This document shows, in pieces, positions 24,696-49,583 of a stretch of DNA of 64,000 bases. This stretch comes from a virus: the UHGV virus genome UHGV-1351772. One strand, 5' to 3'. Positions within the stretch are counted from its first letter, which is position 1, and each line of letters starts with the position of its first letter. The notes below the pieces were generated by a model, which was given only the letters and a program-made list of their open reading frames with translations, was not told the origin of the DNA and searched no databases. Position numbers and translations under genes: made by a program.

Positions 24696-27413
24696 ATGGA
24701 CGATATTTGTAAATTAACGGGCGACCCCGCCGTAGCTGCAATTCTTCGTAAAACTACGGGCCCAGCACCCCAGCAACAACGCGGTACGCGTAGCGAGGGT
24801 GGTTCTACGCCAACACGTCAGGAACTTGCAGGAATTGTAAGTTCGCGTATTCGTACTATCAAAAATGCGGAACGTATCTTTGATGCGTTACCTGAACTCG
24901 AAACGATTGTTACCATTGCAACTTCGAGCTTGCTGTCGACAAAAGACTTAATCAACACCACGTTGATTTACGACAACATCGCAGACATTCCAATTGACTT
25001 ACGCAATGACCTACTGACACCAACGCGTGATTATCATGATAACGTACGTCAATTACCTAAGAAATTATATCAGTGGATTTACGACGCGTTAAAAACAAAA
25101 GGCGCAAGTCCAGTGATGATAATCTCGGACAACGGATTTGACCAGTTGTTCGGTTTAGACGCCAAAGTCGCTACCGAGTCCGTACGTCATTCTCAAGCTG
25201 CCTTTTTCGAAGACCAGCTCGGTATTCTCGGCCCAATCAACGGGCAAGAAGACGGGCAACGCGTAGGTGTGGAATCTATACTGAGTCGTGTTCGTGGCCC
25301 TGTTAAAGGACCACAGTCGCTGAAAATCAATTTCAGTAACCACGATAAGATGTTCTCAGATAAGTTCGAAATGGACATCTCGATCACCGACAACCCACGT
25401 ATCACGTTACTACCCCATGCTTATCGTCGAATCGCTCATGAGAACGCACGTACTGGTCTCTACGGCCAATTAGAGCAAGCCGCATATGAAAAGCCTGCCA
25501 CACCGACAGGTGCTACGCCGTATGAAGTTAATCAACAGTTTAACGATCGTCAGCGTGACGCGGCTGAAAAAGGCTTCATTAACTTAGGCGATCTGAACGA
25601 AGCGTACAAAGGTACACCAAAAACTCAGACTTATGGTGATATTCCGATTATTTCGATGAATGAAAACAACCAAATCGAATATTTCGAATGTCTATTGCCT
25701 GCTGAGTCTACCGCACCGTTGGTTATCGGCGACGACGTTCGTAACCCTATTGGGTTTCTGACCATTATTGACGATATGGGTAACTTCATCAACTCACGTT
25801 CTTCACTTTACGGGGACGCGAACTTTATGAACTACCTTAATAACGACGGCATGACGGACAGTATTATCAACCGCTCTAATTTAGGTTTGGGTAATACCTC
25901 TCGTATAACGCCAGAGATCGCCAACCGTTTAAGTGCCCGTTGTAGCGAGATTGCTGAGAACGAATTTACCCGTGCGTTAAGCCAGGCATTGGGTGGAGCT
26001 GAAATCAGCATGAAAATTACCGAAACTTTCGGTCGTATTCTGCTGGCACGTCACCTCGCAAAACGTCACACACAGGTTGTCTATATCCCGGCTAATAACT
26101 TGTGCTACTTTGCAACGGACTTTAACGAAGATGGTATTGGGGTGTCTATCACCGAACGTTCCTTTATCATCTCTACGGTCAGGATGGCACTGTTGTTCGC
26201 AACGATGAACTCCTCAGTGTTGAACTCAGCACGTCACATGCAATACGACATTGAGTTATCGCCAGACGATATGAACGGTCAGAAAACGGTTGACCAAGTT
26301 AAATCAGATATTCTCAACTCCTATAACCGTCGTTTACCGATGTGGGGTGATATCAATGACGCTTGGTCAATGGGGGCTAATGCCGGGATTGCATTTAACG
26401 TGACGGGTAATGAATACTACGCCAGTCATAAAGTGTCGGTTTCGGACACAACGCCTGAGTATAAAGTGCCCGATCAACAAATCGATGAAAACTTACTCCG
26501 TCGTACTTGTCACATCGCGTGTGTAGACCCGGATCTTGTTTTGACGCCGGAAAACCTGGAATTTGCTTCACAGATTTATTCCAAGTCACTGCTGGTGACT
26601 CAGCAAATCGTGAAAAAACAAGAAATCCTATCTACGCCGTTAACACGCTACGTGACAAACAGTTTGCAAGCCTCTCCTAAGTTACAAGCAGAACTGATTC
26701 GTGTTATCGTTGAATATATTCGCAATCAGAATCCTAATGTAACAGGTGAAGACTTGACCAAACAGACGTCAGAGTATCTGGCGAAGTTCATCAATGGCAT
26801 GAAAGTCACCTTACCACCACCAGACACATCAGCTTCTTCTTCACAAGCGGATCTGTTTGATAAACGCTATGAGTTCATTGAGAAACTGGCGGATCTGGTT
26901 GTTACCGACGACATTTCGAATATGCTTCAGAATGAAGGTATCGAAATGCAGCCTGATGATCTCAAGACGATGATTAAATCGTTCTATACGCGTAACTGGC
27001 TGCGTAATCAAGGTATCGAAACCGATCTGTTTGATTTGATCTACGACGAAGATAAACGTGGTGAAAACGTCAAGATGATTTCTGATGAAATCGCAGCAGC
27101 ATCGAAGACGCTGATTCAGTTAGCTAAACGCACAACAGGTAAAGTTGAAACCTTAGCAAAAGCGGCTGATTTGAATCCTGAGGACGCCAATAGCTTCGGC
27201 GGGGGTAGCGACTTCGGTGGCGGCTCTGAAGACGACGGTGGCTTAGGGGGCGATGAGGACTTAGGTGGCGACGATATGGGCGGTGATGAAGACTTGGACA
27301 TGTCTGATGATGAAACGACGGAAACCGATACGACAACGGAAGAAGACGTTTCTGCTGAAGACACAGACGAGACGGATACCGGTACAGACGACAACGCCGA
27401 CGAAACTCTCTAA
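24696..27413 (+). CDS. large hypothetical protein with acidic Gly/Asp/Glu-rich disordered C-terminus
   Basis: GGAGA RBS before ATG 24696; C-terminal GGGSDFGGGSEDDGGLGGDEDLGGDDMGGDEDLD. Confidence 0.5.
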   Translation: MDDICKLTGDPAVAAILRKTTGPAPQQQRGTRSEGGSTPTRQELAGIVSSRIRTIKNAERIFDALPELETIVTIATSSLLSTKDLINTTLIYDNIADIPIDLRNDLLTPTRDYHDNVRQLPKKLYQWIYDALKTKGASPVMIISDNGFDQLFGLDAKVATESVRHSQAAFFEDQLGILGPINGQEDGQRVGVESILSRVRGPVKGPQSLKINFSNHDKMFSDKFEMDISITDNPRITLLPHAYRRIAHENARTGLYGQLEQAAYEKPATPTGATPYEVNQQFNDRQRDAAEKGFINLGDLNEAYKGTPKTQTYGDIPIISMNENNQIEYFECLLPAESTAPLVIGDDVRNPIGFLTIIDDMGNFINSRSSLYGDANFMNYLNNDGMTDSIINRSNLGLGNTSRITPEIANRLSARCSEIAENEFTRALSQALGGAEISMKITETFGRILLARHLAKRHTQVVYIPANNLCYFATDFNEDGIGVSITERSFIISTVRMALLFATMNSSVLNSARHMQYDIELSPDDMNGQKTVDQVKSDILNSYNRRLPMWGDINDAWSMGANAGIAFNVTGNEYYASHKVSVSDTTPEYKVPDQQIDENLLRRTCHIACVDPDLVLTPENLEFASQIYSKSLLVTQQIVKKQEILSTPLTRYVTNSLQASPKLQAELIRVIVEYIRNQNPNVTGEDLTKQTSEYLAKFINGMKVTLPPPDTSASSSQADLFDKRYEFIEKLADLVVTDDISNMLQNEGIEMQPDDLKTMIKSFYTRNWLRNQGIETDLFDLIYDEDKRGENVKMISDEIAAASKTLIQLAKRTTGKVETLAKAADLNPEDANSFGGGSDFGGGSEDDGGLGGDEDLGGDDMGGDEDLDMSDDETTETDTTTEEDVSAEDTDETDTGTDDNADETL

Positions 27414-28157: not shown

Positions 28158-29810
28158 TTAGTAACGCACCGGTGCGGTAATTTCACCATTGCTAAGCAGT
28201 GTATAGGATACCGACGGGGTAGCCAGCTTCACAATAGCTTCAGGTGCGCGTTGGTTAATTGCTTCATAGATACCGACAATAGGTTCAAACGCATTACCGA
28301 AGGAGGAAATCTCTACGATATTGCGTCCTTTTGCAGACGGGTAATCCGCAGGCAGCTGGATAGTGTAAGTTACGCGGCAAATTTCAATAGCACGATCGTT
28401 AGATTTCAGACGGAAGTGCAGCTTACGAACAGAACGTGCAACCAGCAAGCACAGTTCGCGGAAGAAATCTGCAGCCGTGGTTACGCCATTTTCACCGATA
28501 GTGCGCGGGAACAGCGTGTCACGGAAGTATTCGAGATCGCTTAAGTTACAATCGAATTGTACAAATTTCGTACCTGGAATTCCTTTACCGTAGTTTGTCG
28601 CAACAGAAATCGCGTTATGAACCAAAACAGTGAGTGTTGCGTTAAACTGCTGACAAAACTCCACACAGCTTTGTTTCAGTGTATCCGGCTCCTCTGCCTG
28701 AGTATTGAAATATTGCAGTAGGCGCTCAGACATTTTACGGATGCGGAACACCTCATCGATCGTACGCTTCAGCATTTCTTCCGGATCGTCAATATCGCGA
28801 ATATCTTCGATACCATCGATTGCCTGGCGGGTGGCAGTATAAAATTCTTGAAGGTAAGTTTTGCTCGAATTCGTACTCACCATCGGGAACAATTTATACT
28901 CGCTTTCGGTTTTCACCATCACATCCGCTTCATCATAAACGCAATAATCGACGTCTTCATTATCGATGATTTCGTCAACCTTTTCTGACCAATTGTGATG
29001 GCTAGAATACGGTGAATTCTTGATGCGTTCATTGAGTTCTTTCGGCGTAAGAATATTTTTCTTAATCTGTTCTCTAAGTTCGTGATCTAAATAGTCTTCC
29101 ACAATTTCCACCCGGAAATGATCGATGATAGGTTTATTGTAACGTTCGACAAGTTCTTCGATAGTTTTCTCGTCGAGCTCACGCGGTTTGTTAGCTTCCA
29201 CCATAGACTGCGAAACAGTCGGTTTAGGCTGTGCCTGTTGCACGGGTTGCTGTGCAGGTTGTTGTGCAGGCTGGCCGAAGTTACCTTGCGGTTGCGGTGA
29301 TTGTTTCTGTGCCGCTGTGCGCGGATCGTAAGTTGACATTGGGATAGAACCCCCTTGTACCGCTGGTGCTGGTTGTGGACTACCATAGCCGCTGCCTGGG
29401 AAGCCAGACGCTGGCATCGCTAAGCTCGGAGACCCACCCATTGCTGGGCCACCAAAAGTGCTCGATTGCGCCATAAGCTGTTTAGCTTGCACCGCATACT
29501 GATTCGCCGTACGGAATTCCTGTTCCAGCTGGCTGTGAATACGCGGGTCCAGTGGCTGCATACCACGTCCCAGTAAGTCACTATACAGCGTCGATTTAAA
29601 AGTTGCCAGAATCGCCGATGCAGTTTCGTTATCTGGACGACGGTTGTATACAAACCACGTGGCGACGGTAACGGCATTATCCATGTATTTGTCGTCATTC
29701 AATCCAGCAGCACGTGCTTGATTACAAAGATACGATAAAAGTTCATCACGACCACTGGAGATCGTGCTATAGATGTGGTTACGAATTACGTCTTTATTGA
29801 CAGTTGCCAT
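28158..29810 (-). CDS. hypothetical protein with Pro/Gln-rich linker
   Basis: ORF track. Confidence 0.5.
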   Translation of the reverse strand: MATVNKDVIRNHIYSTISSGRDELLSYLCNQARAAGLNDDKYMDNAVTVATWFVYNRRPDNETASAILATFKSTLYSDLLGRGMQPLDPRIHSQLEQEFRTANQYAVQAKQLMAQSSTFGGPAMGGSPSLAMPASGFPGSGYGSPQPAPAVQGGSIPMSTYDPRTAAQKQSPQPQGNFGQPAQQPAQQPVQQAQPKPTVSQSMVEANKPRELDEKTIEELVERYNKPIIDHFRVEIVEDYLDHELREQIKKNILTPKELNERIKNSPYSSHHNWSEKVDEIIDNEDVDYCVYDEADVMVKTESEYKLFPMVSTNSSKTYLQEFYTATRQAIDGIEDIRDIDDPEEMLKRTIDEVFRIRKMSERLLQYFNTQAEEPDTLKQSCVEFCQQFNATLTVLVHNAISVATNYGKGIPGTKFVQFDCNLSDLEYFRDTLFPRTIGENGVTTAADFFRELCLLVARSVRKLHFRLKSNDRAIEICRVTYTIQLPADYPSAKGRNIVEISSFGNAFEPIVGIYEAINQRAPEAIVKLATPSVSYTLLSNGEITAPVRY

Positions 29811-29849
29811 TATTATACTCCTGTTACGTCTTTTCTATAATTTAATTCG

Positions 29850-31625
29850 TTAACGGCCAATCTTCGCAATGTCTTCTTCGGTTGCTTGGATCAACTCGTT
29901 GAGTTTTGGATTACGTACCATCACCAGTTGGGTGTTCGTCTTCATATACGGATTGAGAATACCCGATTTGAACGGTGATGATTTCGGAATGTAATACACG
30001 TTACCACATTCCAGATGAGATGCAGAGGCATGTTTTGTCCGGTCATTAAGGTTAACCGTCTTACCGCCCTTGCTGTTACGTTTTGATTCTGTTTCTGTCT
30101 GGCTGATAGCATGGGTTGAAACCCCCAGCACCATAGACTCGGTAGAAGCGTTGAAATAACTTACACCGCCATTGCCGGTAATGTTGCGTAATACCAGGCT
30201 GGTTACAATGTCTTTATTCAACGCACTGCGTATCATGTTCGCACAAGACTCCGGTGTTCGATTTTCCGTTTGTCCCAAGTGGAAACGAATCGCTGCGATG
30301 GTAGGCGTAAAGCCACGCTCACCCAATAACAGGTAATCTGTTACGGTCAGACGTTTTCCATACATTGACGGAATATCACCTTGTTTCGTAAGGCGCGTTC
30401 TCACCATCAACTTCGTCGCGTACCAGAAGAAATCAAACATATCCATATCGTCCGGGATATCGGGATCTGACATCATTAACTCGCCACGGAATGTTGAGTT
30501 AACGTAACGTTCACACTCCGTATAGTGCTTCGTCATGCTGTGTGCCAGTTCAATATCGGACGGTTTAAGTCCAACAATACTTCTCCCCAAAATCTCCCGC
30601 CAAATTGCGGAGGAATTCAGGTTTACAACATCGTCCTCCATTGCAAGTTCGTTAATCGCGGTAAACAACGGCGGTAAAGGAACAACGTTGCCGCTTTTAA
30701 TCGCTTGCTTTCCGCAATAATAGTGCGCTGCTTTAAAGAATGCAGAAATCGCCACGAGTAATAAGTGCTCGTTTTGATCCCATCCCGCTTTATCGAGATT
30801 TGGTAAAGCCTCTGCAGGAACCGTCACTACGTACATAATCGACCGATTATGTTTAGGCTCACCTGAACTGATTACTACTTTTTTATCGAGATCGATTTCA
30901 GGTACTTTGAATGCAGGATATATCTCCACATCCACGCCAGTATAACGTTTGATGGCTTCCTTAAATCCATAACGTCCGAATAGCCAGTACATTAACGGCT
31001 TTTCGTCCGTGTCAGGATGTGTGGCGTTTTTGGCTTTAAACAAATTGTTTGTTCCGGGTAAGAACAACTCTTCTTTCTTCCCATTCACTAAAATCCGTAC
31101 CGGGTGCTTACAGAATTTTAATGACGCTTTACGTTTAAAGTCAAAATTAACAAACACCCCGCCGTGCTCACGACAGATACCCGGCTGATGAATAACAGGT
31201 GCAACATGATACGTTGTTCCGTAATAGTTCATCAACCCACCACGACGAATGAAAGGCAAGTTAATCGGTCTTGAGATTGGTCTTGAGTCTCCAGGAATAC
31301 GGAACGACGACATGACCATATACGCATCGGTATTCGCGATAGACATCACCCCACGACGCTTATCCATCCTGCTGCTCTCTGAACGAGACAGCTTATAGAT
31401 AAAAGTTTCGAACGGCGACATTAAACGAACACCCAACACGGCCAAGCCTTCAGGAACACGAGGGTTCTCTACAGGATGGTAATCTAGCTCACGTTTCAAG
31501 ATACGATGTACACGATCGTGAATACCATCTTTGGCTTGTGTATAACCGACTCCTTCCGCAATCGCACGGTTAAAGGGTACTATTTTACCACTCTCTTTAA
31601 GCTTTTTGATTGCATCTTTAAACAC
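29850..31625 (-). CDS. hypothetical protein
   Basis: ORF track. Confidence 0.5.
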   Translation of the reverse strand: MFKDAIKKLKESGKIVPFNRAIAEGVGYTQAKDGIHDRVHRILKRELDYHPVENPRVPEGLAVLGVRLMSPFETFIYKLSRSESSRMDKRRGVMSIANTDAYMVMSSFRIPGDSRPISRPINLPFIRRGGLMNYYGTTYHVAPVIHQPGICREHGGVFVNFDFKRKASLKFCKHPVRILVNGKKEELFLPGTNNLFKAKNATHPDTDEKPLMYWLFGRYGFKEAIKRYTGVDVEIYPAFKVPEIDLDKKVVISSGEPKHNRSIMYVVTVPAEALPNLDKAGWDQNEHLLLVAISAFFKAAHYYCGKQAIKSGNVVPLPPLFTAINELAMEDDVVNLNSSAIWREILGRSIVGLKPSDIELAHSMTKHYTECERYVNSTFRGELMMSDPDIPDDMDMFDFFWYATKLMVRTRLTKQGDIPSMYGKRLTVTDYLLLGERGFTPTIAAIRFHLGQTENRTPESCANMIRSALNKDIVTSLVLRNITGNGGVSYFNASTESMVLGVSTHAISQTETESKRNSKGGKTVNLNDRTKHASASHLECGNVYYIPKSSPFKSGILNPYMKTNTQLVMVRNPKLNELIQATEEDIAKIGR

Positions 31626-31635
31626 GCCATGCTCC

Positions 31636-32646
31636 TTACGTTAGCATCCCTATAAATGCGACACCCGCCGCCAAATACGCAGGGACAGATTTAAATAGGT
31701 CTGAGCCGTCCTTACGAATGTAAGAACGCGTCTCGTAGAATTCTTTACGCGCCTCAGCCCGTGACTTCGCTTCCAATTCCTGTTGCTTGAATGCTAAAGT
31801 CAATCGCTCCTTTTCTAAAGCCATGCTCTGTAGTTGTTTCTTGTGTTCCAATTCTAGCTTGTCTTTTGCCGAATCCAAGCTTTCTAATTTTTCTTTGTAC
31901 TGCTCCTCTAAACGCTGCTTAATCTCAAAGAGACCGGGAACTGCTTCTTGCCATCGAAACGCGTCCGCCGCTGCCTCGTCCTTAAATAATCTAAACGGTG
32001 AAGTAATGTCGTCAAATTCAAAATGAATCATTCGACTGCCTTCCACCCTCGTTCCACCTCCTATTATCATGTAAACGCCCGGTTCATAATAGCGTGACGT
32101 TATTGGCTCGATTTTCATTTTCGTGCCGTAGAAACGTAGCCACCGATAGTTGTCAGGCTCATCGTAGCGCTGCACAACAACAACACCCAATGTAAATTCA
32201 GTGCGCTCACCTCCAGGGCGCATAGTTGGGGGTTTACTATCTAAGCGTATTGGTGTTGTTGAGAAAGCAAAGCCTAATTGCTTTAGTACAACCAAATCTC
32301 CTCGCAGCAACGCGCCAACATCGTTTACTGCATACTCTAACGTTACCTCTCCTTTTTCTTTCAATTGGGCGCAAAAGCGAGAAAATTGTTTTCCCGGCAT
32401 CAGTTCAGCAAACCCATTGAGATTCGCGCATCTTCCGTATGATTGATACGTCACGTAAACGATAACCCCATGCTCATCAGCGGGGTTTTTCGAAGCATTT
32501 AAAATAAAGCTACCGCCACTGGTTTCAGTGACGTGGATAGGCACGCCAGTGTTATTTTCAAACGTAACAAGTTTCCTCAATCCAGACGTTTGACATAACG
32601 AGCGTTCAGAGATACTGGGCACCACATCAATATCAAGACGTTTCAT
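31636..32646 (-). CDS. hypothetical protein with C-terminal coiled coil and hydrophobic anchor
   Basis: ORF track; promoter-like motif ~90 nt upstream. Confidence 0.5.
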   Translation of the reverse strand: MKRLDIDVVPSISERSLCQTSGLRKLVTFENNTGVPIHVTETSGGSFILNASKNPADEHGVIVYVTYQSYGRCANLNGFAELMPGKQFSRFCAQLKEKGEVTLEYAVNDVGALLRGDLVVLKQLGFAFSTTPIRLDSKPPTMRPGGERTEFTLGVVVVQRYDEPDNYRWLRFYGTKMKIEPITSRYYEPGVYMIIGGGTRVEGSRMIHFEFDDITSPFRLFKDEAAADAFRWQEAVPGLFEIKQRLEEQYKEKLESLDSAKDKLELEHKKQLQSMALEKERLTLAFKQQELEAKSRAEARKEFYETRSYIRKDGSDLFKSVPAYLAAGVAFIGMLT

Positions 32647-32735
32647 GGGAACCCAAGCTAAATTTTAATGATGACACATATCTTTAGTTTAAACTGTATT
32701 TTTTCCATACATACTCCTTTAAAACCAACTGGCCG

Positions 32736-32760
32736 TCTCCCATTAATAATATCTATCCAA
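32736..32760 (-). promoter_or_regulatory. promoter-like motif, variant copy
   Basis: tctcccattaataatatctatcc, closest to the 46862 copy. Confidence 0.35.
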
Positions 32761-32788
32761 AAAATAATAGAAAGAAAAAAAATAAAAG

Positions 32789-32812
32789 GTCTAAGCCCCG
32801 AAGGGCTTAGAC
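32789..32812 (-). terminator. strong rho-independent terminator downstream of the 764-aa structural gene
   Basis: gtctaagccc cgaa gggcttagac with long flanking A/T runs. Confidence 0.7.
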
Positions 32813-32827
32813 ACTTTTTATTCGGTA

Positions 32828-35122
32828 TTATTTACCAGCAGCAGCTTTGCCTTCGCCAGCAACGTTACCTGCTACACCACCTTCGGTTTGTTTCTGACCG
32901 TTCTGTTCAACAGAAACATTGTAAGCCAGTTTTTCTTCAACCAGTTTGGTGATGCCTTTAACCCAGATCAGACCAGTGATCGGGCAGTGGCAGATGTGCG
33001 CGTTACGTGGCTGTACGGCCAGCTCTTTAGAGGTAGAACCGTTACGCTGAATGTTGATGTTGGTAACCATGATCGGAGACCAGAAGTGGTTACCCCAGTT
33101 CAGCACGTTGTAGGAACCATCGTCCGCAGTCGGAACTTTCAGGAACCATTGCAGACGACGAGTCCAGGAACCGTCAGCTGCGTTGTAGATACGCCAGCGG
33201 TCATCGTTGGTGGTGATCACTTCGTATTCGTAGCGATCGCCCAGCAGACGTTGGTCGCCCTGTACCAGCAGCAGCATAGATGCAGTCGGTTCGTCAGTTG
33301 CAATAACAACTTTCGGCAGAATGTCCGGATCGGCAGTGTACAGACGCAGCGCAGGAATGAAGCGAGATTCCTGGATAGCCTGAGTTACCTGATTACCGAT
33401 ACGCTGTACCAGGCCCTGACGAGCGTTGATCAGTGCATCTTTGGTATCCAGGGACTGTACAACTTCATCAACGTTGTAGTCAGACTCTTTGAACCACGGA
33501 GCAACCCAGTGACGTCCCAGACCACGAATGGCCGGTTTGTCCCACGGAGTGATCATGCTTGCAGCAGCGTTACGTACCGCTTCGGTGTAAGACAGCGTCT
33601 GAGTGATAGCCAGCTGTTCGTTACGGATGTTAACTGCGGAAATCAGGTCGTCCAGACGTTCGGTATCGTCGTATTCAACTCCAACCGGAGACTTGGTCAG
33701 GATCGGAGAACCGTATTGCAGTTTGTAGTTTTCTTGTTCCCAGATTGGGTCAAGCAGCAGACCCTGGGTACGACGGTTTTCGTTGGTACGAGTACCATCG
33801 AAGCGCCAGCCCATCAGTTCAAGTTTCAGACCGTCCAGGATAACTTTGCCGGTACCAGATTTGGTATCAACTTTGTTACCGGTAGCGTCGTACAGACCTT
33901 CGATTTCCAGTTTGTGACCAGCGATGTCAACTTTACCACCGAACTGACCGGTAGTGAACAGAGACATGTTGATGGTGATCACATAACGCAGGGTGTAGGA
34001 GTTCTGACCAAGCGCTTGCAGTGCCGGAATAGCCGCACCAGTCCAGTCGGTAGTTTTCGCGTTCAGAGAGAACGCAGTACGACGGAATTGCAGTACCAGC
34101 TCACGGCCATCACCTTCAGCAGGACGCTGGAAGGTTGCGAACTGCATGTCACGAACGTGCAGTTTGATGAATTTACCTGCTTTTGCTTCTTCGGTCGGTT
34201 TACGTACGGAAATCAGCAGGCTGCCCAGAGCACAACCCGGTGCGATTTCATCAGTTTCGTCGTAACCTTCCTGAACGATACCCGGATGCGCAGACAGCTG
34301 GAACAGGTTCAGAGTGTCTTTAGCAAAGCTCAGGTAGTTAGTCGGGTACGGAGGTACACGACCCAGGCGAACAGATTCGTTCGGTACCAGTTCTTCGCTT
34401 ACGAAGTATTCAGCGTTTTCACCGGTTTCCATTACGTAAGGAACGATGTTGATCGCTTCGTCCTGAAGAACGGTGTGGTCAGTCAGCGCTTCGTGCAGGT
34501 TACGACGATGATCTTCAACAACGTCTTTGGTCAGTAACGCGTGCATGACACCACGAGAAACGGTGGTCACTTTGGTACGTACGGTAATACCAACGTCATT
34601 GGTGTCAACGGTGATGGTCGGGAACAGAGTCTCAGCGAAACGAGACTGAGTTTCCAGAGCACGTACGTTCAGCGTCCAGGTCAGACCCAGGTTTTTGTCG
34701 TAATCTTTGTTGGTGTAGTATTCCTGAGCAACAACCATACGCTCTTTGCCCCAGTCGCCGTTACCAGCTTGGGAACCAGGAATCGCAACGTCCAGGTTAA
34801 AACGGCTATGGAATTCTGGCTTAGCGTATTCTTGCGCTACTTTTTCTTGCAGGTCCATACCGTGACCAGCAGCACCCAGAATCATTGCAGAAGCAACTTC
34901 CGCAGCGTGGGACATTTTCTTGCCGCCAGCAAACGCGTTTGCGTAGTGCTGTGCAGCATCGTCACGCAGGGTACCAAAAACTTTCGTGTTGCTACGTACA
35001 GACTCACCAGCAACGATGGTGTTCCACATTTCGCCAGCACTGTTGTTACTAATGACGCTTTGTACCAGCGAGTTACCAGCTTGTACGAGTTTCTCCAGAT
35101 TAGAGATTCGGGTATCTTTCAT
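32828..35122 (-). CDS. major virion structural protein, possibly jumbo-phage-type major capsid protein
   Basis: 764 aa, strongest host-like codon bias in window, strong terminator, N-terminal S/A/G-x-E motifs typical of prohead-protease-processed capsid proteins; assignment is inference. Confidence 0.45.
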   Translation of the reverse strand: MKDTRISNLEKLVQAGNSLVQSVISNNSAGEMWNTIVAGESVRSNTKVFGTLRDDAAQHYANAFAGGKKMSHAAEVASAMILGAAGHGMDLQEKVAQEYAKPEFHSRFNLDVAIPGSQAGNGDWGKERMVVAQEYYTNKDYDKNLGLTWTLNVRALETQSRFAETLFPTITVDTNDVGITVRTKVTTVSRGVMHALLTKDVVEDHRRNLHEALTDHTVLQDEAINIVPYVMETGENAEYFVSEELVPNESVRLGRVPPYPTNYLSFAKDTLNLFQLSAHPGIVQEGYDETDEIAPGCALGSLLISVRKPTEEAKAGKFIKLHVRDMQFATFQRPAEGDGRELVLQFRRTAFSLNAKTTDWTGAAIPALQALGQNSYTLRYVITINMSLFTTGQFGGKVDIAGHKLEIEGLYDATGNKVDTKSGTGKVILDGLKLELMGWRFDGTRTNENRRTQGLLLDPIWEQENYKLQYGSPILTKSPVGVEYDDTERLDDLISAVNIRNEQLAITQTLSYTEAVRNAAASMITPWDKPAIRGLGRHWVAPWFKESDYNVDEVVQSLDTKDALINARQGLVQRIGNQVTQAIQESRFIPALRLYTADPDILPKVVIATDEPTASMLLLVQGDQRLLGDRYEYEVITTNDDRWRIYNAADGSWTRRLQWFLKVPTADDGSYNVLNWGNHFWSPIMVTNINIQRNGSTSKELAVQPRNAHICHCPITGLIWVKGITKLVEEKLAYNVSVEQNGQKQTEGGVAGNVAGEGKAAAGK

Positions 35123-35134
35123 TTGTTTAATACC

Positions 35135-35659
35135 TTAATGAGATAAATGACATGCGTATAATTGCGTCAGCACTTCGTTAGCGGCAAACTGCGTTGAGGT
35201 ACTGAAGCAGTCATCCACGACGCGAGTCTTGGTACGCATATATTTAAAAAGTTCTGCGCAGAACATCTTTTTCGCAGCGTGGTCTTCACCCGAAGAAAAA
35301 CCCGAACCGGACTTCGCTTCTGCAAATGACGCCACAATCGTATCACCACGTTGAGTAAACACCCAACGTACGCGACAAGGAATTGTTTCCCCATATAAAT
35401 CGTCAAGGGAAACCTTTTCGCCTGATTCGACCAGACGTAACACCTGATCATAATATTTACCTGGAAGCACAGGCGGAGCCATTAACGCTTTATAAATAGC
35501 AGAACGACTTACTTCAGGTAAGATAATAGAACTGAAACCATTCGGACAGTCATATAACCAGTTAAAGAACCCTGCCTGGAGCAATTCTATACTTTTAACG
35601 GCAGCGCCTTTATCTATGTTAGGTTGAACTTCCCACGGTGGACTAAAACGAATTTGCAT
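35135..35659 (-). CDS. hypothetical protein immediately upstream of structural gene
   Basis: ORF track. Confidence 0.45.
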   Translation of the reverse strand: MQIRFSPPWEVQPNIDKGAAVKSIELLQAGFFNWLYDCPNGFSSIILPEVSRSAIYKALMAPPVLPGKYYDQVLRLVESGEKVSLDDLYGETIPCRVRWVFTQRGDTIVASFAEAKSGSGFSSGEDHAAKKMFCAELFKYMRTKTRVVDDCFSTSTQFAANEVLTQLYACHLSH

Positions 35660-35672
35660 TTAAGGATGCTCC

Positions 35673-37235
35673 ATGAATAACAAAATGATGTTGATAACCG
35701 CCTTAGCCACATTATACGCTGAAAGTCTTCTGACCGATCCTGAAAAGGACCACGACATCATAAGAAAAGTGCTGTTAGAGGCTAAGCTTCCTGATTACGC
35801 AGAAGAAGGTGACGAACGTGCCGCCCTCGTCGAAATCAAGGATATCATCACATCCATCATAGACGGCGGTATGCCTTACGACCACACAAACGTCATGAAA
35901 CGTTTGAAACTGGCCACTACGCAAATACGTCCTCTATACGATACGATTACCAAATTCCTGGAAGATGATATTCCAGAAGAACCAGAAGCACGCATCGAGC
36001 ATCTTAATCGCCAAGTAGCACAATACTACTTTCAGTTACGTCAAGCTATTCAAGGCGTACAACTGAAACAAAAATTGGGTCGTACGTTAGGCGCACTGAA
36101 CGGCACTGAAACGCGTGTTGATTTACAAACGGCGCTCAACGACCTTAAGGATACCTTATCCACGTTCAGTGAACGCTCTCATAATAAGATTCCTTCTCTG
36201 GTAGGGGAATTGATTACTGATAATAAAGCACCTTTCGTGCATGTATTCGACTCTATCAGTAAGAAAGCGGCAGGGAACGGGTTGCGTACGGGGTGGAAAG
36301 CAATTAACCAAATGCTCGGTTGTAACAAAGGGATCACCGAAGAACTCTGGCTGATGCCTGCTCTTCCCTTTAACTGTAAATCATTATTCAGTTTATTGCT
36401 CTCTATTAGCATTCCTGTATTCAACACTCCAGAAAAGGTGATGGCGAATGTTAAAGGTGACCTACAACCGGTTATTCTGGATTTAAGTTTAGAAAACGAA
36501 TTGGATGTTAACTTGGCTTACGCGTATCAAGCACTTTACGGACACTTTGAAGGTACAGCTCCGGTAATGGTTGCACCTGAAACGGCAACTGACGAAGAAA
36601 AAGCGCTACACAATGCACAAATGTCAGATTACCTCTGTAGTAAAATGCGGGCAAACGGTTGGGAGTATATTTTCCAAAAACACACAAACTCCGATTTTAA
36701 AATTCACTATTTGAATGATTTGATTTTAGATTTAAAACGTCGAGGTTATCATGTAGCTGGAATACGCGGAGACTATTTCGGTACTATCAGCAAAGCAGGA
36801 CACGGTAACGGCATTGCGGGTAGTGACATTAAAGAAATTTATCGTATCGCGCGAAACATCCAAGTGGTACGTAATCGTGGTTTCCTCTTAGCACCACACC
36901 AAATCTCACCTGAAGGCAAAAAATTAAAAGCACTCGACCCAGCAAGTTTCTGTAAGAGCTTACCTGGTCGTGGTCTTTACGACAACTGCTCTAGCTTAGA
37001 CAACGAAGCTGACGGTGAGATGTATTTTAACAAACGTGTCGTCAGCGGACACAGCTATTTAGAAGTACAACGCGGTAAACACCGTACCATTATTGATACC
37101 AAAGAAGCTTATCATTATACTGTAATACCTTTCCGTGATGTTGGCATTTTGCCATGGGATTGTGATAAAGAAGAAACTGTAACAGCCTCGTCGATTAACG
37201 TATTTACCGGCGGCATGGGTGACGAACTCTTTTGA
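35673..37235 (+). CDS. hypothetical protein (520 aa)
   Basis: AAGGATG RBS; plus-strand island. Confidence 0.5.
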   Translation: MNNKMMLITALATLYAESLLTDPEKDHDIIRKVLLEAKLPDYAEEGDERAALVEIKDIITSIIDGGMPYDHTNVMKRLKLATTQIRPLYDTITKFLEDDIPEEPEARIEHLNRQVAQYYFQLRQAIQGVQLKQKLGRTLGALNGTETRVDLQTALNDLKDTLSTFSERSHNKIPSLVGELITDNKAPFVHVFDSISKKAAGNGLRTGWKAINQMLGCNKGITEELWLMPALPFNCKSLFSLLLSISIPVFNTPEKVMANVKGDLQPVILDLSLENELDVNLAYAYQALYGHFEGTAPVMVAPETATDEEKALHNAQMSDYLCSKMRANGWEYIFQKHTNSDFKIHYLNDLILDLKRRGYHVAGIRGDYFGTISKAGHGNGIAGSDIKEIYRIARNIQVVRNRGFLLAPHQISPEGKKLKALDPASFCKSLPGRGLYDNCSSLDNEADGEMYFNKRVVSGHSYLEVQRGKHRTIIDTKEAYHYTVIPFRDVGILPWDCDKEETVTASSINVFTGGMGDELF

Positions 37236-37239
37236 GTCT

Positions 37240-37257
37240 GGGGAGCTTCGGCTCCCC
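37240..37257 (+). terminator. hairpin with UUCG loop, weak terminator
   Basis: ggggagc ttcg gctcccc directly after stop of 35673..37235. Confidence 0.45.
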
Positions 37258-37340
37258 CTTATGACCCCTTATGCGTCTCGAAAAACAAAAAAAAACAGAA
37301 GGCTATTAATTATGAACGGGAAACAACTACTGAACTAAGT

Positions 37341-37363
37341 AGGGGGTGGTGACAACACCCCCT
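37341..37363. terminator. GC-rich hairpin (agggggtg...caccccct), terminal member of repeat series
   Basis: T-rich run follows on plus strand; same architecture as hairpin 3 of the two full units. Confidence 0.4.
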
Positions 37364-37378
37364 TTATTAGTTAGTAAC

Positions 37379-37540
37379 TTATCTCCTTACAGGTGGTTGG
37401 TGAACATTGTGGTTGTTAACCGTTTTCGGTGCCGCAACGAGGCCGAGACGAACATATTCGTCCATGCGTTGGTTAAACTGAATTTGTTTTTCACGATTTC
37501 GCATCGCGGTATTGGACATCTGTATTTGATATTCGTTCAT
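37379..37540 (-). CDS. small basic protein, paralog A (53 aa), not in ORF track
   Basis: Manual translation MNEYQIQMSNTAMRNREKQIQFNQRMDEYVRLGLVAAPKTVNNHNVHQPPVRR; AAAGG RBS-like. Confidence 0.35.
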   Translation of the reverse strand: MNEYQIQMSNTAMRNREKQIQFNQRMDEYVRLGLVAAPKTVNNHNVHQPPVRR

Positions 37541-37599
37541 TTTTCATTACCTTTCGTAATGTTGTAAAAACGTCAACAACTTTATGTGTTGACACCGTA

Positions 37600-37687
37600 C
37601 AGCAGAGACTGTTCCGCCAGTCTCTGCTGCTTTAACTTCTCTTTCGAAAAGTTAAAGCTATGAAAAGGGGTGCTTCACCACCCCTTT
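37600..37687. other. conserved three-hairpin structured element, copy 1 (candidate sRNA or intercistronic RNA structure)
   Basis: hairpin1 37600-37629, hairpin2 37629-37658, hairpin3 37664-37687 plus T-run. Confidence 0.4.
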
Positions 37688-37694
37688 ATTTTAT

Positions 37695-37865
37695 TTAGTA
37701 GTTACTTCTCCTTTCGGTGAAGATTTGTACTCGAGGATTATTAGAAGGTTTAAGCCTTTTATTTAATCCTAGCTGTTGAACTTCTCTTAATCGTTCATTA
37801 AACCTCGCTTGTTCTGCATAGCTGTTTGAGATAGAAGTAAAGATACGTGTATTGTTGTTAGTCAT
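37695..37865 (-). CDS. small basic protein, paralog B (56 aa), not in ORF track
   Basis: MTNNNTRIFTSISNSYAEQARFNERLREVQQLGLNKRLKPSNNPRVQIFTERRSNY; GTGAGG RBS 7 nt upstream. Confidence 0.35.
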   Translation of the reverse strand: MTNNNTRIFTSISNSYAEQARFNERLREVQQLGLNKRLKPSNNPRVQIFTERRSNY

Positions 37866-37921
37866 GTTAAAACCTCACACGAGTTGGGGATTAAGCTATT
37901 ACGCGGGTGTAATAGCAACAA

Positions 37922-38006
37922 GTAGGGACTGTACCGGCAGTCCCTACTGCTTTATCTTCTCTTTCGAAAAGATAAAGCGCCTATGGGGAGTGTTGGCGCA
38001 CTCCCC
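37922..38006. other. conserved three-hairpin structured element, copy 2
   Basis: hairpin1 37922-37947, hairpin2 37949-37978 (28/30 identical to copy 1, one compensatory pair), hairpin3 37985-38006. Confidence 0.4.
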
Positions 38007-38015
38007 TTTAGGTTG

Positions 38016-38168
38016 TTACCTCCTCTCAACTGCCAACTGGGTGTTTCTTGAATATGCAACTTTGGGCTGTGTTAACGTTGGTTGCGCTATTTCACTAACC
38101 CTTCGCTGAAACTCAAGTTGTTTTGTTGACAACTCGTTTAACCGTCGAAACAGCAGTTCATGTTTCAT
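38016..38168 (-). CDS. small basic protein, paralog C (50 aa), not in ORF track
   Basis: MKHELLFRRLNELSTKQLEFQRRVSEIAQPTLTQPKVAYSRNTQLAVERR; AGGTGA RBS-like. Confidence 0.35.
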   Translation of the reverse strand: MKHELLFRRLNELSTKQLEFQRRVSEIAQPTLTQPKVAYSRNTQLAVERR

Positions 38169-38212
38169 GAACTCATCACCTATGTCGATTTTGCGAAAAT
38201 AAATAAAGTGTA

Positions 38213-38238
38213 CCCCTAATCCTTTTCGGGATTAGGGG
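38213..38238. terminator. bidirectional rho-independent terminator
   Basis: cccctaatcc/ggattagggg stem with T-runs both sides. Confidence 0.6.
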
Positions 38239-38244
38239 TTGCTT

Positions 38245-39060
38245 TTATTTAGTCGCTACGTATTGAACATGGCCACATTCCTTACATTCCACGTTGGCTT
38301 TCGGGATTGTCAGGCCGGTTAAAGGAACACGTATTTGGTACTGTGCTCCACATTCTTCACAAACAAAATCGTGTTCTGGATAAACACGACCTTCTAATTT
38401 CTCTTCTTTCCTTAGTGTGCCTGCTAAGAACAGCATCGCACCTAACGCTTCATTAATCTGCTGTTCCCATTCTCCGTCTAACGGGTAAGCGAACGCACGA
38501 GTCAACGTTTCCACCATCTCTGGAGTATTACTTACATAAACGTGTTTCAGTTCAAACTCAACACGCTGTAAGCCAAACAATACGCGTGCTGTTACAGTAA
38601 CATTATCCAACGTTTGTGCAAATACAACGGGATTATCGTCGCCGTACATCGCGAATAACGCAGCACGTTCGTATTCGATATCACTCCACTCGATTAGTTC
38701 TACAGATTTAATCTCTTCCGCAATCGTAGCATTACCGAACGTTTCATGTTCCAATAATCCGACGATAACTTCATTCAACGATTTCAATTGCTGTAAACGA
38801 ATCACAGGATCGGTGTTCACGATAAGCAAACGATGCATTCTGGATTTCAACCAATTAATCGTTCCTTCTACACCGCCCCCAAACGAGCAGATGCTTATCA
38901 CTTCAGGTTCGCGAAGGATAAGAGTGGATTTTCCTGCTGCCGTACTCAAGTAGAGTTTAAAAGACTTATCGCTGGACTCTGCAACGATGGCAATGTCTTC
39001 AGTTGGAACAAAGTTTTCATTGCTCAGTCCACGCGGAAAATAATCTTTAATGGTAATCAT
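38245..39060 (-). CDS. hypothetical protein with C-terminal zinc-ribbon (CxxC...CxxC)
   Basis: FVCEECGAQ...VECKECGHV. Confidence 0.45.
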   Translation of the reverse strand: MITIKDYFPRGLSNENFVPTEDIAIVAESSDKSFKLYLSTAAGKSTLILREPEVISICSFGGGVEGTINWLKSRMHRLLIVNTDPVIRLQQLKSLNEVIVGLLEHETFGNATIAEEIKSVELIEWSDIEYERAALFAMYGDDNPVVFAQTLDNVTVTARVLFGLQRVEFELKHVYVSNTPEMVETLTRAFAYPLDGEWEQQINEALGAMLFLAGTLRKEEKLEGRVYPEHDFVCEECGAQYQIRVPLTGLTIPKANVECKECGHVQYVATK

Positions 39061-39090
39061 CTTTTATGCTCCAATTAATAAAAAATTAAG

Positions 39091-39106
39091 GGCACCCGAA
39101 GGTGCC
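39091..39106 (-). terminator. rho-independent terminator
   Basis: ggcacc cgaa ggtgcc after A-run. Confidence 0.6.
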
Positions 39107-39113
39107 TTATACA

Positions 39114-39257
39114 TTAACCACGACCAGTGCACTGTGCAACGGAGTTACCGTTGTCGATGCAAGTGTCGTAGCCTTTGTCGATGTCCAGATACAGGCAACC
39201 CAGAACAACAGCGATAACAACAGCGAAAATAGCTTTTTTGTGTTTTACAGAAATCAT
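39114..39257 (-). CDS. small lipoprotein-like peptide (47 aa), not in ORF track
   Basis: MISVKHKKAIFAVVIAVVLGCLYLDIDKGYDTCIDNGNSVAQCTGRG; AGGAG RBS 8 nt upstream; host-like codon bias. Confidence 0.4.
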   Translation of the reverse strand: MISVKHKKAIFAVVIAVVLGCLYLDIDKGYDTCIDNGNSVAQCTGRG

Positions 39258-39302
39258 GATATAACTCCTAATTAGGTATTCGATAAATGAGTATTACGTA
39301 AA

Positions 39303-39328
39303 CTCTCACCTAGGTAATATATATCTGA
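39303..39328 (-). promoter_or_regulatory. conserved promoter-like motif, copy 3
   Basis: ctctcacctaggtaatatatatctga upstream of lipoprotein-like gene. Confidence 0.45.
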
Positions 39329-39460
39329 AATCTTTTTGAATCCATATACCCTCTAGAACGCTCTAAAACGCATTCTGACGCAATTTTCTTTTTAAAGGGT
39401 AATTAGTCGTCTTAGCGGTTAAATGACTTCTGCGTGTCGTTTAGGAATAAATAAAAGGTA

Positions 39461-39488
39461 TTCCCGTTACCCATAGAGGTAACGGGAA
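39461..39488 (-). terminator. rho-independent terminator
   Basis: ttcccgttacc/ggtaacgggaa stem, A-run upstream on plus. Confidence 0.6.
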
Positions 39489-39492
39489 GTTT

Positions 39493-46966: not shown

Positions 46967-48229
46967 TTATTTAGATTTTTCGTAAGCAGCGATACCTGCG
47001 GAGATATAGCCGTTCAGACCGCTGGCCAGGTGTTTCTGGGTAGAAGCAATAATTTTCTCATTAAAAGAGAGACTACGTTGAACACTGGTAATGTGGCGAC
47101 GTAACTTACGCACATTGTCGGTCAGTTCTGGTTTTTCATCGATCTTGACTTTATCGATTTCTTTCAACAGATTACCGATTTTATCTTCAAAGGACTTACG
47201 TGCGCTTTCGACTTTACGATAAGCCTGAACGTTTTTCTCGATCTGTTTACCCACTTCGTTGAAGAAGGCATTGATCTTAGCCAGTTCGCCAACAGACGGA
47301 GTTTTCACGCTGGTTTCAACGCTTTTCTCAGCTTCGACAAAGGTATAACTAAAGCCACCTTCTTCATCGTACTCGACTTTCGCAGAGACGTTGCCGAGAT
47401 GATATTCGATAACTTCTTTTTTGGCGATCGCTTCGAAAACTTTCTTCAGTTCTCCATCAAAAGAAGCATCGCCTTTAAGGGCTTTATCAACCATGCCAGC
47501 AGCATCAGTGGCTAAAGAAGGGACTTCATTACTATAGAAATTAGAAACTCTGTGCAGATCGTCTTTCAGTGACGGGATATCGTTGCCAACGAACTTGCCA
47601 TCGATAGACAGAGACTTGATAAAGCCACCAGAGATTTCATCTTTCTTCTGTTTGCCCAGCTTACGAATAACTTCATCGTATTTCTTAGCACGCGCCTGGA
47701 TAGATTTACCCTGGTTGTGGAATTTCAGCCAGCGATCTTTGATCTTACGACCCTGTTCTTTCAGCCAATCCCAGATACGACCAATGAAGGCTTTAATGTC
47801 TTCCCACAGGGATTCACGAGCAACCTGACGACGGTTACGAGAACCGTAGGATTCGTGAGCAACAGAAGAACGGTGTTCGAAGTTCCAACGAGAACGGATA
47901 GATTCCTGAGCAACGTCCAGCGCAGTCGCAGCGTCGTCCGGCATATCTTCTTCGGCGTCCATCGGTTCTTCACCGTCTTCGCCAGCACCTTCACCGTCAG
48001 CAGCAGCCTGAGCTTCATCCAGAACATCCAGCTGAGCGTCAGTTTCGTCGCCGTCTTCTGCCAGCAGTTCAGCGTCAGCGTCCAGAGCTTCGATCGGTTT
48101 GGTGTCATGCTCGATATCGGCCAGAGTGCCTTCTACGGATTCTGCTGGCAGTTCGATGCCGTCTGGAACTACAGTAGAAGTAGACTCCATAGACTCACGA
48201 GCAATTTTGTTTTTGTAGAAATTCGCCAT
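46967..48229 (-). CDS. abundant virion-type protein, tandem paralog 1 (420 aa)
   Basis: Shares N-terminus MANFxK..ARESME, central KKYxExxRKLGKQKKDEISGGFI and C-terminus GLNGYxxAGIxAYEKSK with 48312..49583; acidic N-terminal region; strong codon bias. Confidence 0.5.
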   Translation of the reverse strand: MANFYKNKIARESMESTSTVVPDGIELPAESVEGTLADIEHDTKPIEALDADAELLAEDGDETDAQLDVLDEAQAAADGEGAGEDGEEPMDAEEDMPDDAATALDVAQESIRSRWNFEHRSSVAHESYGSRNRRQVARESLWEDIKAFIGRIWDWLKEQGRKIKDRWLKFHNQGKSIQARAKKYDEVIRKLGKQKKDEISGGFIKSLSIDGKFVGNDIPSLKDDLHRVSNFYSNEVPSLATDAAGMVDKALKGDASFDGELKKVFEAIAKKEVIEYHLGNVSAKVEYDEEGGFSYTFVEAEKSVETSVKTPSVGELAKINAFFNEVGKQIEKNVQAYRKVESARKSFEDKIGNLLKEIDKVKIDEKPELTDNVRKLRRHITSVQRSLSFNEKIIASTQKHLASGLNGYISAGIAAYEKSK

Positions 48230-48248
48230 TTTAAGCTTTTCCTCTAAG

Positions 48249-48267
48249 GGGAACGTATTGTTCCCCT
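48249..48267 (-). other. inter-paralog hairpin (ggggaac aatac gttcccc)
   Basis: Lies between the two paralog genes without a clear U-run on the minus strand. Confidence 0.35.
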
Positions 48268-48311
48268 GATGATTTATTTCAAGAACTGTACGGAACTACG
48301 AATCTAAATGA

Positions 48312-49583
48312 TTATTTAGATTTTTCGTAAGCACCGATACCAGCACCCAGGTAGCCATTCAGACCGCTAATAACGGTGTTAGCAACATAGCTAACTGCGC
48401 GGTTCAGGGTCTGGTAGTTCTTAACAGACCAATCGGCAGCTTGACGTGCGTTACGCAGGCCATCCCACTTGCTATCGTCTTTTTCGTTGTTCAGCGCCTT
48501 AGCAGCATTCTCAGCAGCCTGTTGCAGCTTCACGATTTCAGAATCGTAAGCACGGAAATCTTTCAGTACGGCTTCGAAGCCTTTACCGATCGCTTCCAGA
48601 GCAGAAGCAGCGCCAGCCATTTCAGAAACAGACGGAGTTTTCACGTCTTTATCGTCAGAAGCGTCGCCGGTGCTCATGAATGCGATTGCAGTGAACTTGT
48701 GGCCGCCAGCCAGTTCTTTAGTACCAGCCTGAATGTAAGCGTTGCCCGGCAGTGCCAGCAGTTTAGACGCATCACCTTTTTCAAAGTTCGGCAGAGTGTG
48801 TAGTTTAGAAGCAGCTTTACCAAACAGTTCTACCGGCTGATCACCACGCATTGCCTTGAATGCGTCATCGTCACCTTTGGTAACGGCAGTCACAGCTTCA
48901 CCAGCTTGTTTTTCCAGAGCACCGATGGAACCTTTAGCTTTACCAGCGGTAACTTCTTTCGCAATAGCGATAGAGCCAGCAGCATCGAATTTACCTTCGA
49001 TAGACAGCTTGGTGATAAAGCCACCAGAGATTTCATCTTTCTTCTGTTTGCCCAGCTTACGCAGCATTTCCTGATATTTCTTCGCACGTTTCTGTGCGGT
49101 CTTACCGACGTTGAAATATTTCAGTTTCAGGTCTTTGATCTTCGCAATCACTTCTTTACAGAACTGAATGAAACGATCGTAAAGATCTTTCAGGGTTTCT
49201 TTCCAACCTTCCTGTGCAGCAGCAGTCATACCACGACCACGGCGATAGGATTCGCGAGCCAGTTTAGTACGTTCCAGGCACCAACGACGTGCGATGGATT
49301 CCTGTGCCACTTCGTGCAGGGCAACCGCTTCTTCCGGCATTTCTTCACCGTTAGCAACGGCTTCTTCCGCCTGTTCGATAGCGTCTTCAGTACGCTCGGT
49401 ATCGGCAGCCAGGGTTTCACCGTCGGTTTCCAGCTGATCGAGCTGACCGTCGATAGATGCTACGTCCGCAAGTTGGACGTCCAGGTTCTCTTCTGCCGGT
49501 TCAACGTTGCTGATACCGTCGATTACTTCATCGGCCGCTTCCATCGATTCACGAGCGGCGCGAGTTTTTGCGAAATTTGCCAT
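48312..49583 (-). CDS. abundant virion-type protein, tandem paralog 2 (423 aa)
   Basis: See paralog 1; AAAGGAAA RBS. Confidence 0.5.
   Translation of the reverse strand: MANFAKTRAARESMEAADEVIDGISNVEPAEENLDVQLADVASIDGQLDQLETDGETLAADTERTEDAIEQAEEAVANGEEMPEEAVALHEVAQESIARRWCLERTKLARESYRRGRGMTAAAQEGWKETLKDLYDRFIQFCKEVIAKIKDLKLKYFNVGKTAQKRAKKYQEMLRKLGKQKKDEISGGFITKLSIEGKFDAAGSIAIAKEVTAGKAKGSIGALEKQAGEAVTAVTKGDDDAFKAMRGDQPVELFGKAASKLHTLPNFEKGDASKLLALPGNAYIQAGTKELAGGHKFTAIAFMSTGDASDDKDVKTPSVSEMAGAASALEAIGKGFEAVLKDFRAYDSEIVKLQQAAENAAKALNNEKDDSKWDGLRNARQAADWSVKNYQTLNRAVSYVANTVISGLNGYLGAGIGAYEKSK

Follow-up and report, generated by a model that had tools for sequence, protein, structure and literature searches.

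A 764-residue protein of the PhiKZ_MCP family as the very probable major capsid protein of an SPN3US-like jumbo phage

A gene of 764 codons lies within a 64,000-nucleotide stretch of viral DNA (UHGV virus genome UHGV-1351772; the whole stretch that was analysed is hereafter referred to as the window), and the question is which structural protein it encodes and for what kind of phage. An initial annotation, made from the sequence without database searches, placed an open reading frame (ORF) of this size at 32828-35122, proposed a capsid protein of the phiKZ type and named a tail sheath as the competing assignment. The frame is confirmed to the nucleotide: an ATG-to-stop reading frame of 764 amino acids spans exactly 32828..35122 on the minus strand, with an AAGG Shine-Dalgarno-like element upstream of the ATG and a terminator-like hairpin 16 nt past the stop codon. 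We find that its product is very probably the major capsid protein (MCP) of a jumbo myophage of the phiKZ/SPN3US type (Chimalliviridae).

32828..35122, minus strand: major capsid protein gene, complete, 764 codons plus stop; orthologue of SPN3US gp75, phiKZ gp120 and Goslar gp41
32775..32812, minus strand (read 32812-32775): intrinsic-terminator-like hairpin of 10 bp (6 GC) with a loop of 4, followed by a T-run

The palindrome at 32775..32812 scores as terminator-like on the plus strand too. A sigma-70 promoter scan returned 2 hits compared with 3.4 in shuffled sequence and is uninformative here because the phage uses its own polymerase for late genes. Two plus-strand ORFs of 549 and 201 amino acids that run antisense over the MCP gene match no Pfam family, and we rejected them as real genes and regard them as shadow ORFs.

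Family searches gave a direct and full-length assignment. The Pfam family PF25620, PhiKZ_MCP ("Bacteriophage PhiKZ major capsid protein gp120"), is matched with 694.3 bits (curated cut-off, 27 bits; E=1.6e-208), residues 73-729 covering profile positions 2-634 of 635, and PHROG 3231 ("major head protein") takes in residues 1-754 of the 764 (E=8.5e-280). A phmmer comparison with the PDB sequences matched four solved capsid proteins over about 600 residues:

11BT/11FG/11MK/11ML: Goslar gp41 (E=5.9e-50)
36ZA: capsid protein (E=1.3e-49)
8Y6V: phiKZ gp120 (E=1e-34)
8BFL/8BFP: MCP of Klebsiella phage phiKp24 (E=4e-34)

The MCPs of phiKZ (PMC11297242) and Goslar have an HK97 fold, comprising an N-arm, a P domain and an A domain, with a large inserted I domain, and form T=27 shells. 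Homology to the solved capsid structures (E=6e-50 to 4e-34) implies that the window protein would likewise adopt an HK97-type fold carrying an I domain. AlphaFold2 modelling of the predicted mature chain from its sequence alone (mean pLDDT 28.9, pTM 0.18) gave a result too poor to use. NCBIfam returned no family for the 764-residue protein; NCBIfam has no model for it, which explains an MCP without a name in NCBI records and is not contrary evidence.

Among annotated phages, the best matches are the MCP of Erwinia phage vB_EamM_Asesino (80.8% amino acid identity) and then that of Salmonella phage SPN3US (78-79%), the latter, gp75, being 78% identical in a full-length global alignment. This orthologue, the full-length PhiKZ_MCP and PHROG 3231 matches and the matches to Goslar, phiKZ and phiKp24 all bear out the phiKZ-type capsid proposed at the outset. 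In purified SPN3US virions, gp75 has the top spectral count per unit mass (PMC5694885); it is present in 1,560 copies in a T=27 capsid (PMC5694885, PMC7552025), and mass spectrometry established its processing from 83.9 to 70.4 kDa by a cut at an A-x-E site that takes off the first 130 residues (PMC5694885).

The gene neighbourhood agrees with the orthology. A tblastn search of the window with 73 SPN3US proteins (gp34-gp109, gp119 and gp124) gave matches from gp41 to gp109, in the same order and on the opposite strand, and the order around the MCP gene (gp73 helicase, gp74, MCP, gp76, gp77) is identical in SPN3US. The genes on which the argument draws are as follows:

24696..27188, plus strand: portal gene, gp81-like (tblastn match coordinates; 72.5% to SPN3US gp81)
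29850..31625, minus strand: gp77-like gene for an N-terminal fragment of the non-virion RNA polymerase (nvRNAP) beta subunit (PHROG 2943 'polymerase'; 73% to gp77)
31636-32646: gp76-like gene (tblastn match)
35135..35659, minus strand: gp74-like gene, a conserved capsid-gene partner, with a 12-nt gap upstream of the MCP gene (PHROG 8266; 77% to SPN3US gp74)
35673..37235, plus strand: gp73-like divergent DnaB-like helicase gene, a synteny marker (Pfam divDNAB, E=2e-125; 83% to gp73)
46970-48229, minus strand: gp54-like internal head/ejection protein (Pfam phiKZ_IP)
48315-49583, minus strand: gp53-like internal head/ejection protein (Pfam phiKZ_IP)

The SPN3US portal is gp81 (PMC5694885), and the assignment of gp77 as a non-virion RNA polymerase beta fragment is from PMC5105663. 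The window also holds a gp42-like gene for a fragment of the vRNAP beta-prime subunit, and the 'split polymerase' of the initial annotation is right on the understanding that it denotes the split multisubunit RNA polymerases, represented by the gp77-like nvRNAP beta and gp42-like vRNAP beta-prime fragments. Its 'paralogous abundant proteins' correspond to the tandem gp53/gp54-like pair (46970..49583), which match phiKZ_IP at E=5e-72 and 5e-55 and are reciprocal paralogues, each 33-34% identical to the other's SPN3US counterpart; gp53 and gp54 are abundant in SPN3US heads (PMC7552025). The lambda Stf-like tail-fibre motif noted at the window start is also real (Phage_fiber_2, E=1.6e-10), but the 'mosaic' genome read from it is overstated: the window is collinear with SPN3US gp41-gp109, and the match alone does not show mosaicism because Phage_fiber_2 is a Pfam tail-fibre repeat family.

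Comparison with the processed relatives points to a maturation site. Residues 128-130 of SPN3US gp75 are ATE, followed by YYTNKD, and they align with AQE (residues 132-134) followed by YYTNKD in the window protein. The phiKZ gp120 protein is cleaved between Glu163 and Asn164 (PMC11297242); in the phmmer alignment, query residue 147 pairs with phiKZ residue 176 (an offset of 29), which carries that bond to 134/135 or nearby by extrapolation 12 residues past the aligned block, and the phiKZ cleavage position thus appears to be conserved. The matches to mature chains start shortly downstream, residue 14 of 36ZA pairing with query residue 148 and residue 2 of 8BFL with query residue 161. The A-x-E/YY junction was found in all 19 of the 19 lineage sequences aligned, and identity to SPN3US gp75 is 51.5% in the propeptide and 85.2% in the mature core, a fast-evolving propeptide beside a conserved core being the pattern expected of a discarded assembly domain. 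From the aligned SPN3US and phiKZ sites and the conserved junction, we predict that the precursor consists of a 134-residue propeptide followed by a mature subunit of 630 residues, with the prohead protease most likely cutting after Glu134 during head maturation. The domain boundaries within the mature part were carried over through the phmmer alignment from the published phiKZ gp120 map (PMC11297242; I domain 248-472), and the resulting map is approximate because identity to phiKZ gp120 is only about 24%:

34721..35122, minus strand: predicted N-terminal propeptide, residues 1-134, aligned to the 130-residue propeptide of SPN3US gp75
34721..34729, minus strand: predicted cleavage motif A132-Q133-E134, cut after E134 (AQE/YYTNKD), aligned to SPN3US ATE130/YYTNKD
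32831..34720, minus strand: predicted mature shell protein, residues 135-764 (630 aa); the solved mature chains align from here
residues ~135-176: N-arm, transferred from phiKZ gp120
residues ~177-220 and ~456-467: I-domain linkers, transferred from phiKZ gp120
33758..34462, minus strand, residues ~221-455: I domain (~235 residues), a jumbo-phage embellishment of the HK97 E-loop, from phiKZ gp120
32957..33721, minus strand, residues ~468-722: HK97 core, transferred from phiKZ gp120
residues ~468-522 and ~676-712: P domain, transferred from phiKZ gp120
residues ~523-675 and ~713-722: A domain, transferred from phiKZ gp120
32831..32956, minus strand, residues ~723-764: C-terminal arm and variable Gly/Ala-rich tail (the phiKZ C-arm alignment ends near 730)

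The N-terminal richness in S/A/G-x-E motifs reported in the initial annotation is real but modest: there are 6 in residues 1-135, where composition-matched shuffles give 2.9 +/- 1.3 (p ~0.03), and 7 in the remaining 629 residues, where 7.7 are expected. A C-terminal AGE at residues 755-757 was considered as a second protease site and rejected, as the relatives have AGD.

With an effective number of codons of 32.4, the MCP gene stands beside the gp53-like (31.7) and gp54-like (36.8) genes, and the other 19 of the 22 window genes measured have values of 45-59. The SPN3US counterparts of these three proteins are highly abundant head components (PMC7552025), and the bias of the MCP gene fits a high predicted level of expression. 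Against its 90%-identical copies, the MCP gene has a dN/dS of 0.08-0.12 and is under strong purifying selection; it is not a relic.

In the biology that we propose, the MCP would be a late product, synthesised in very large quantity as a precursor of 764 residues. A procapsid would arise from the co-assembly of this precursor with the portal, the prohead protease and the gp53/gp54-like internal proteins. The protease would then most likely remove the 134-residue propeptide at AQE/YYTNKD, and the 630-residue mature subunit would most likely form the hexamers and pentamers of a T=27 shell in about 1,560 copies, as in SPN3US. The cleavage itself and the copy number are thus predicted values, as is the T number: given a genome about 15 kb smaller than that of SPN3US, T=27 is an assumption for the window phage.

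The propeptide may also have a history of its own. Between the window and the corresponding E. coli 98232 sequence, nucleotide identity is 97-100% in the gp74-like gene, 78-81% in the propeptide and 87-97% in the mature region, and synonymous divergence is 0.96 in the propeptide and 0.29 in the mature part. One doubtful but tenable account is that the propeptide has been exchanged by recombination within the lineage independently of the shell-forming part, in which case it would be an interchangeable module whose co-evolution is with the protease and the internal core and not with the shell. Alternatively, codon-bias constraint may have lowered the synonymous divergence of the mature part, together with ordinary patchy mosaicism.

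Some large phages, including T4, build their pentons from a second MCP-like protein. With this precedent, and with the view confined to 64 kb of the genome, the gene could encode a capsid-fold paralogue with a special role, such as a vertex or penton protein like T4 gp24 or a decoration protein, with another protein forming the main shell. The evidence makes this very improbable. The gene is the positional orthologue of SPN3US gp75 (78% identity); in SPN3US, phiKZ and Goslar one and the same MCP makes up hexamers as well as pentamers, and cryo-EM has shown gp75 to form the outer-shell hexamers and pentamers alike (PMC7552025). Moreover, gp75 matched one place in the window by tblastn, and likewise one place in each related phage record, and the codon bias of the MCP gene is among the strongest in the window. 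The gene is thus best read as encoding the main shell subunit.

Database records extend the picture to the whole genome. The identical protein occurs in public collections on 26 contigs, the longest of 224.8 kb. Two metagenome contigs that carry the gene unchanged measure 223.6 and 224.6 kb. At 90% identity the MCP cluster has 378 members, largely from isolate assemblies; its named members were found in assemblies of Shigella flexneri, Salmonella enterica and Enterobacter ludwigii, where their contigs measure 221-227 kb, and every one of them is labelled "hypothetical protein". Genes with 90% DNA identity are carried by the circular E. coli 98232 record p98232-contig_4 (221,873 bp, labelled plasmid) and by a circular Enterobacter ludwigii plasmid (222,441 bp, typed non-mobilizable). 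The expectation that the window comes from a phage of more than 200 kb thus holds, on contigs of 223.6 and 224.6 kb with the identical protein and circles of 221.9 and 222.4 kb with 90%-identical genes. The features of a jumbo genome are present together: contigs or replicons of 221-227 kb, gp42-like and gp77-like RNA polymerase fragments, and two phiKZ_IP genes.

These same records, namely the 90%-identical copies on plasmid-labelled replicons of E. coli 98232 and Enterobacter ludwigii and a 378-member cluster drawn mostly from isolate assemblies, could be taken to mean that the gene is a leftover on a plasmid-like element that has been domesticated and has lost the production of virions. We consider this even less probable than a specialised paralogue: the ORF is intact, with a dN/dS of about 0.1 and strong codon bias, the whole structural and replication gene order is kept, and the Enterobacter record is typed non-mobilizable. 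Two studies explain contigs of this kind by virulent jumbo phages in a persistent or carrier-state infection, and one of them supplies experimental proof for a jumbo phage. [quoted passage not shown]

A contractile tail sheath, suggested only by the size of the protein and its inferred high expression (jumbo myophage sheaths are likewise large and abundant), is the least credible reading of all and can be set aside: no sheath family was found in Pfam or PHROGs and no sheath chain among the PDB matches at E<=1, although the Goslar sheath is listed as deposited (11EI); the SPN3US sheath is gp256 (PMC5694885), and the window is collinear only with gp41-gp109; and the alignment with capsid proteins runs the whole length of the protein, a full-length capsid-family match being incompatible with a sheath.

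The identification is one of annotation and not of discovery: a well-characterised jumbo-phage MCP has its orthologue here, in an already described lineage, and identifying it adds nothing new on capsid biology. Its use lies in what it says about the surrounding sequence. The window belongs to the genome of a Chimalliviridae jumbo phage whose gene order closely follows that of SPN3US, a genetic model, and this synteny makes most window genes nameable by orthology. Since the capsid protein is labelled "hypothetical protein" in the bacterial and "plasmid" records that we inspected, jumbo-phage genomes of about 222 kb stand deposited as plasmids, and a capsid marker of the PhiKZ_MCP kind offers a simple flag for such mislabelled genomes.

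Among known systems, the MCPs of phiKZ (gp120), Goslar (gp41) and phiKp24 belong to the same Pfam family and align across the whole mature protein, but they are only about 23-27% identical to the window protein, and their phages may differ from the window phage in their sets of minor capsid proteins. The Asesino MCP is 80.8% identical over 97% of the protein and its genome gives the best nucleotide synteny; Asesino differs in its host, Erwinia, and in its genome of 246 kb. SPN3US gp75 (Seoulvirus, Chimalliviridae) shares 78% identity over the full length and 85% over the mature region, the same neighbours in the same orientation and the A-x-E/YYTNKD site, and both phages carry the gp53/gp54 paralogue pair. 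By contrast, the window propeptide is 51.5% identical to that of gp75 and 4 residues longer, the C-terminal Gly/Ala tail differs in length and sequence, and genomes of the window lineage measure about 222-227 kb, compared with 240 kb for SPN3US.

The ICTV guideline for a genus is about 70% or more nucleotide identity over the genome length. When 25 kb around the MCP gene was compared with Seoulvirus genomes by megablast, 25-34% was covered at about 77% identity, or roughly 20-26% overall, which over these 25 kb falls below the value for membership of Seoulvirus; this low nucleotide similarity to SPN3US suggests a different genus. A genus "Bapsvirus" has been proposed for phages with genomes of about 220-226 kb from Salmonella, E. 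coli and Shigella assemblies that lack PhuZ, with conserved synteny but limited nucleotide similarity (15-40%) to Seoulvirus (PMC12768965). The hosts of the cluster, the contigs of 221-227 kb, the synteny and the low similarity to Seoulvirus all match the published description, and, compared by description, the lineage fits the Seoul-like "Bapsvirus" phages, of which it is a candidate member.

The effective number of codons (ENC), a low value of which reflects strong codon bias, was 32.4 for the major capsid protein (MCP) gene, 31.7 for the gp53-like gene and 36.8 for the gp54-like gene (genes are named after their counterparts in the Salmonella jumbo phage SPN3US), as compared with 45–59 for 19 other genes of the window. 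These low-ENC genes are located as follows:
32828-35122, minus strand, MCP gene
46970-49583, minus strand, gp53-like and gp54-like genes
Their SPN3US counterparts are the three most abundant head proteins of that phage (PMC7552025), and thus ENC alone flags the high-copy structural genes in the window phage.

The gp74-like gene (minus strand) ends 12 nt before the MCP start codon and diverges from the helicase gene (plus strand), with the two start codons 13 bp apart (35659 and 35673). Given this spacing, any promoter of the gp74–MCP unit would have to lie within the helicase coding sequence.

Across window positions 29800-37450, nucleotide identity to the Escherichia coli 98232 element (NZ_CP173450.1) is strongly patchy at short range:
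gp74-like gene, 97–100%
MCP propeptide (predicted), 78–81%
mature MCP, 87–97%
gp76-like gene, 63–93%
gp77-like gene, 75–88%
Between the two MCP genes, dS is 0.96 in the propeptide and 0.29 in the mature region. The patchy identity and the uneven dS suggest that recombination is frequent inside the lineage, but codon-bias constraint could play a part.

Divergence from SPN3US also differs from gene to gene across the window. Two genes stand out from their neighbours, which are 70–83% identical to SPN3US:
28161-29795, minus strand, gp78-like gene, 28.6% identity
56607-58262, minus strand, gp47-like gene, 41% identity
SPN3US gp78 is essential and possibly regulatory (PMC5105663). The small-gene block at ~37300-39500, the counterpart of gp66–gp72, falls within the window's GC minimum (0.42), and the two genes tested from it, gp69 and gp70, had no match by tblastn.

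A truncated tail-fibre gene opens the window:
1-897, minus strand, 299 residues, with the reading frame continuing beyond the window start
It encodes a coiled-coil-like stretch rich in Ala, Thr and Gln, followed by a repeat with the motif SPNFTGKPTSPTPP...STTAWV. Pfam assigned residues 221–261 to Phage_fiber_2 (E=1.6e-10), bearing out the lambda Stf-like motif proposed in the initial annotation; SPN3US gp124 had no tblastn match to this gene.

The circular 'plasmids' NZ_CP173450.1 (E. coli) and NZ_CP134650.1 (Enterobacter ludwigii) are entire jumbo-phage genomes of ~222 kb, in agreement with published reports of 'persistent virulent phage' and BAPS (bioRxiv 10.1101/2024.12.31.630880; PMC12768965). 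Both records label the capsid gene 'hypothetical protein'; no NCBIfam model covers a capsid protein of this type. For this capsid gene, several NCBI records (P0006–P0010) list 683–685 rather than 761–764 residues; these short calls seem to take an internal codon as their start, losing most of the propeptide.

The MCP ends in a Gly/Ala-rich tail:
32831-32920, minus strand, residues ~737–764
Its sequence and length differ among lineages, with AGE or AGD variants, and the window tail is 7 residues shorter than that of SPN3US. In the phiKZ MCP, C-terminal arms build a six-helix bundle at the centre of the hexamer (PMC11297242).
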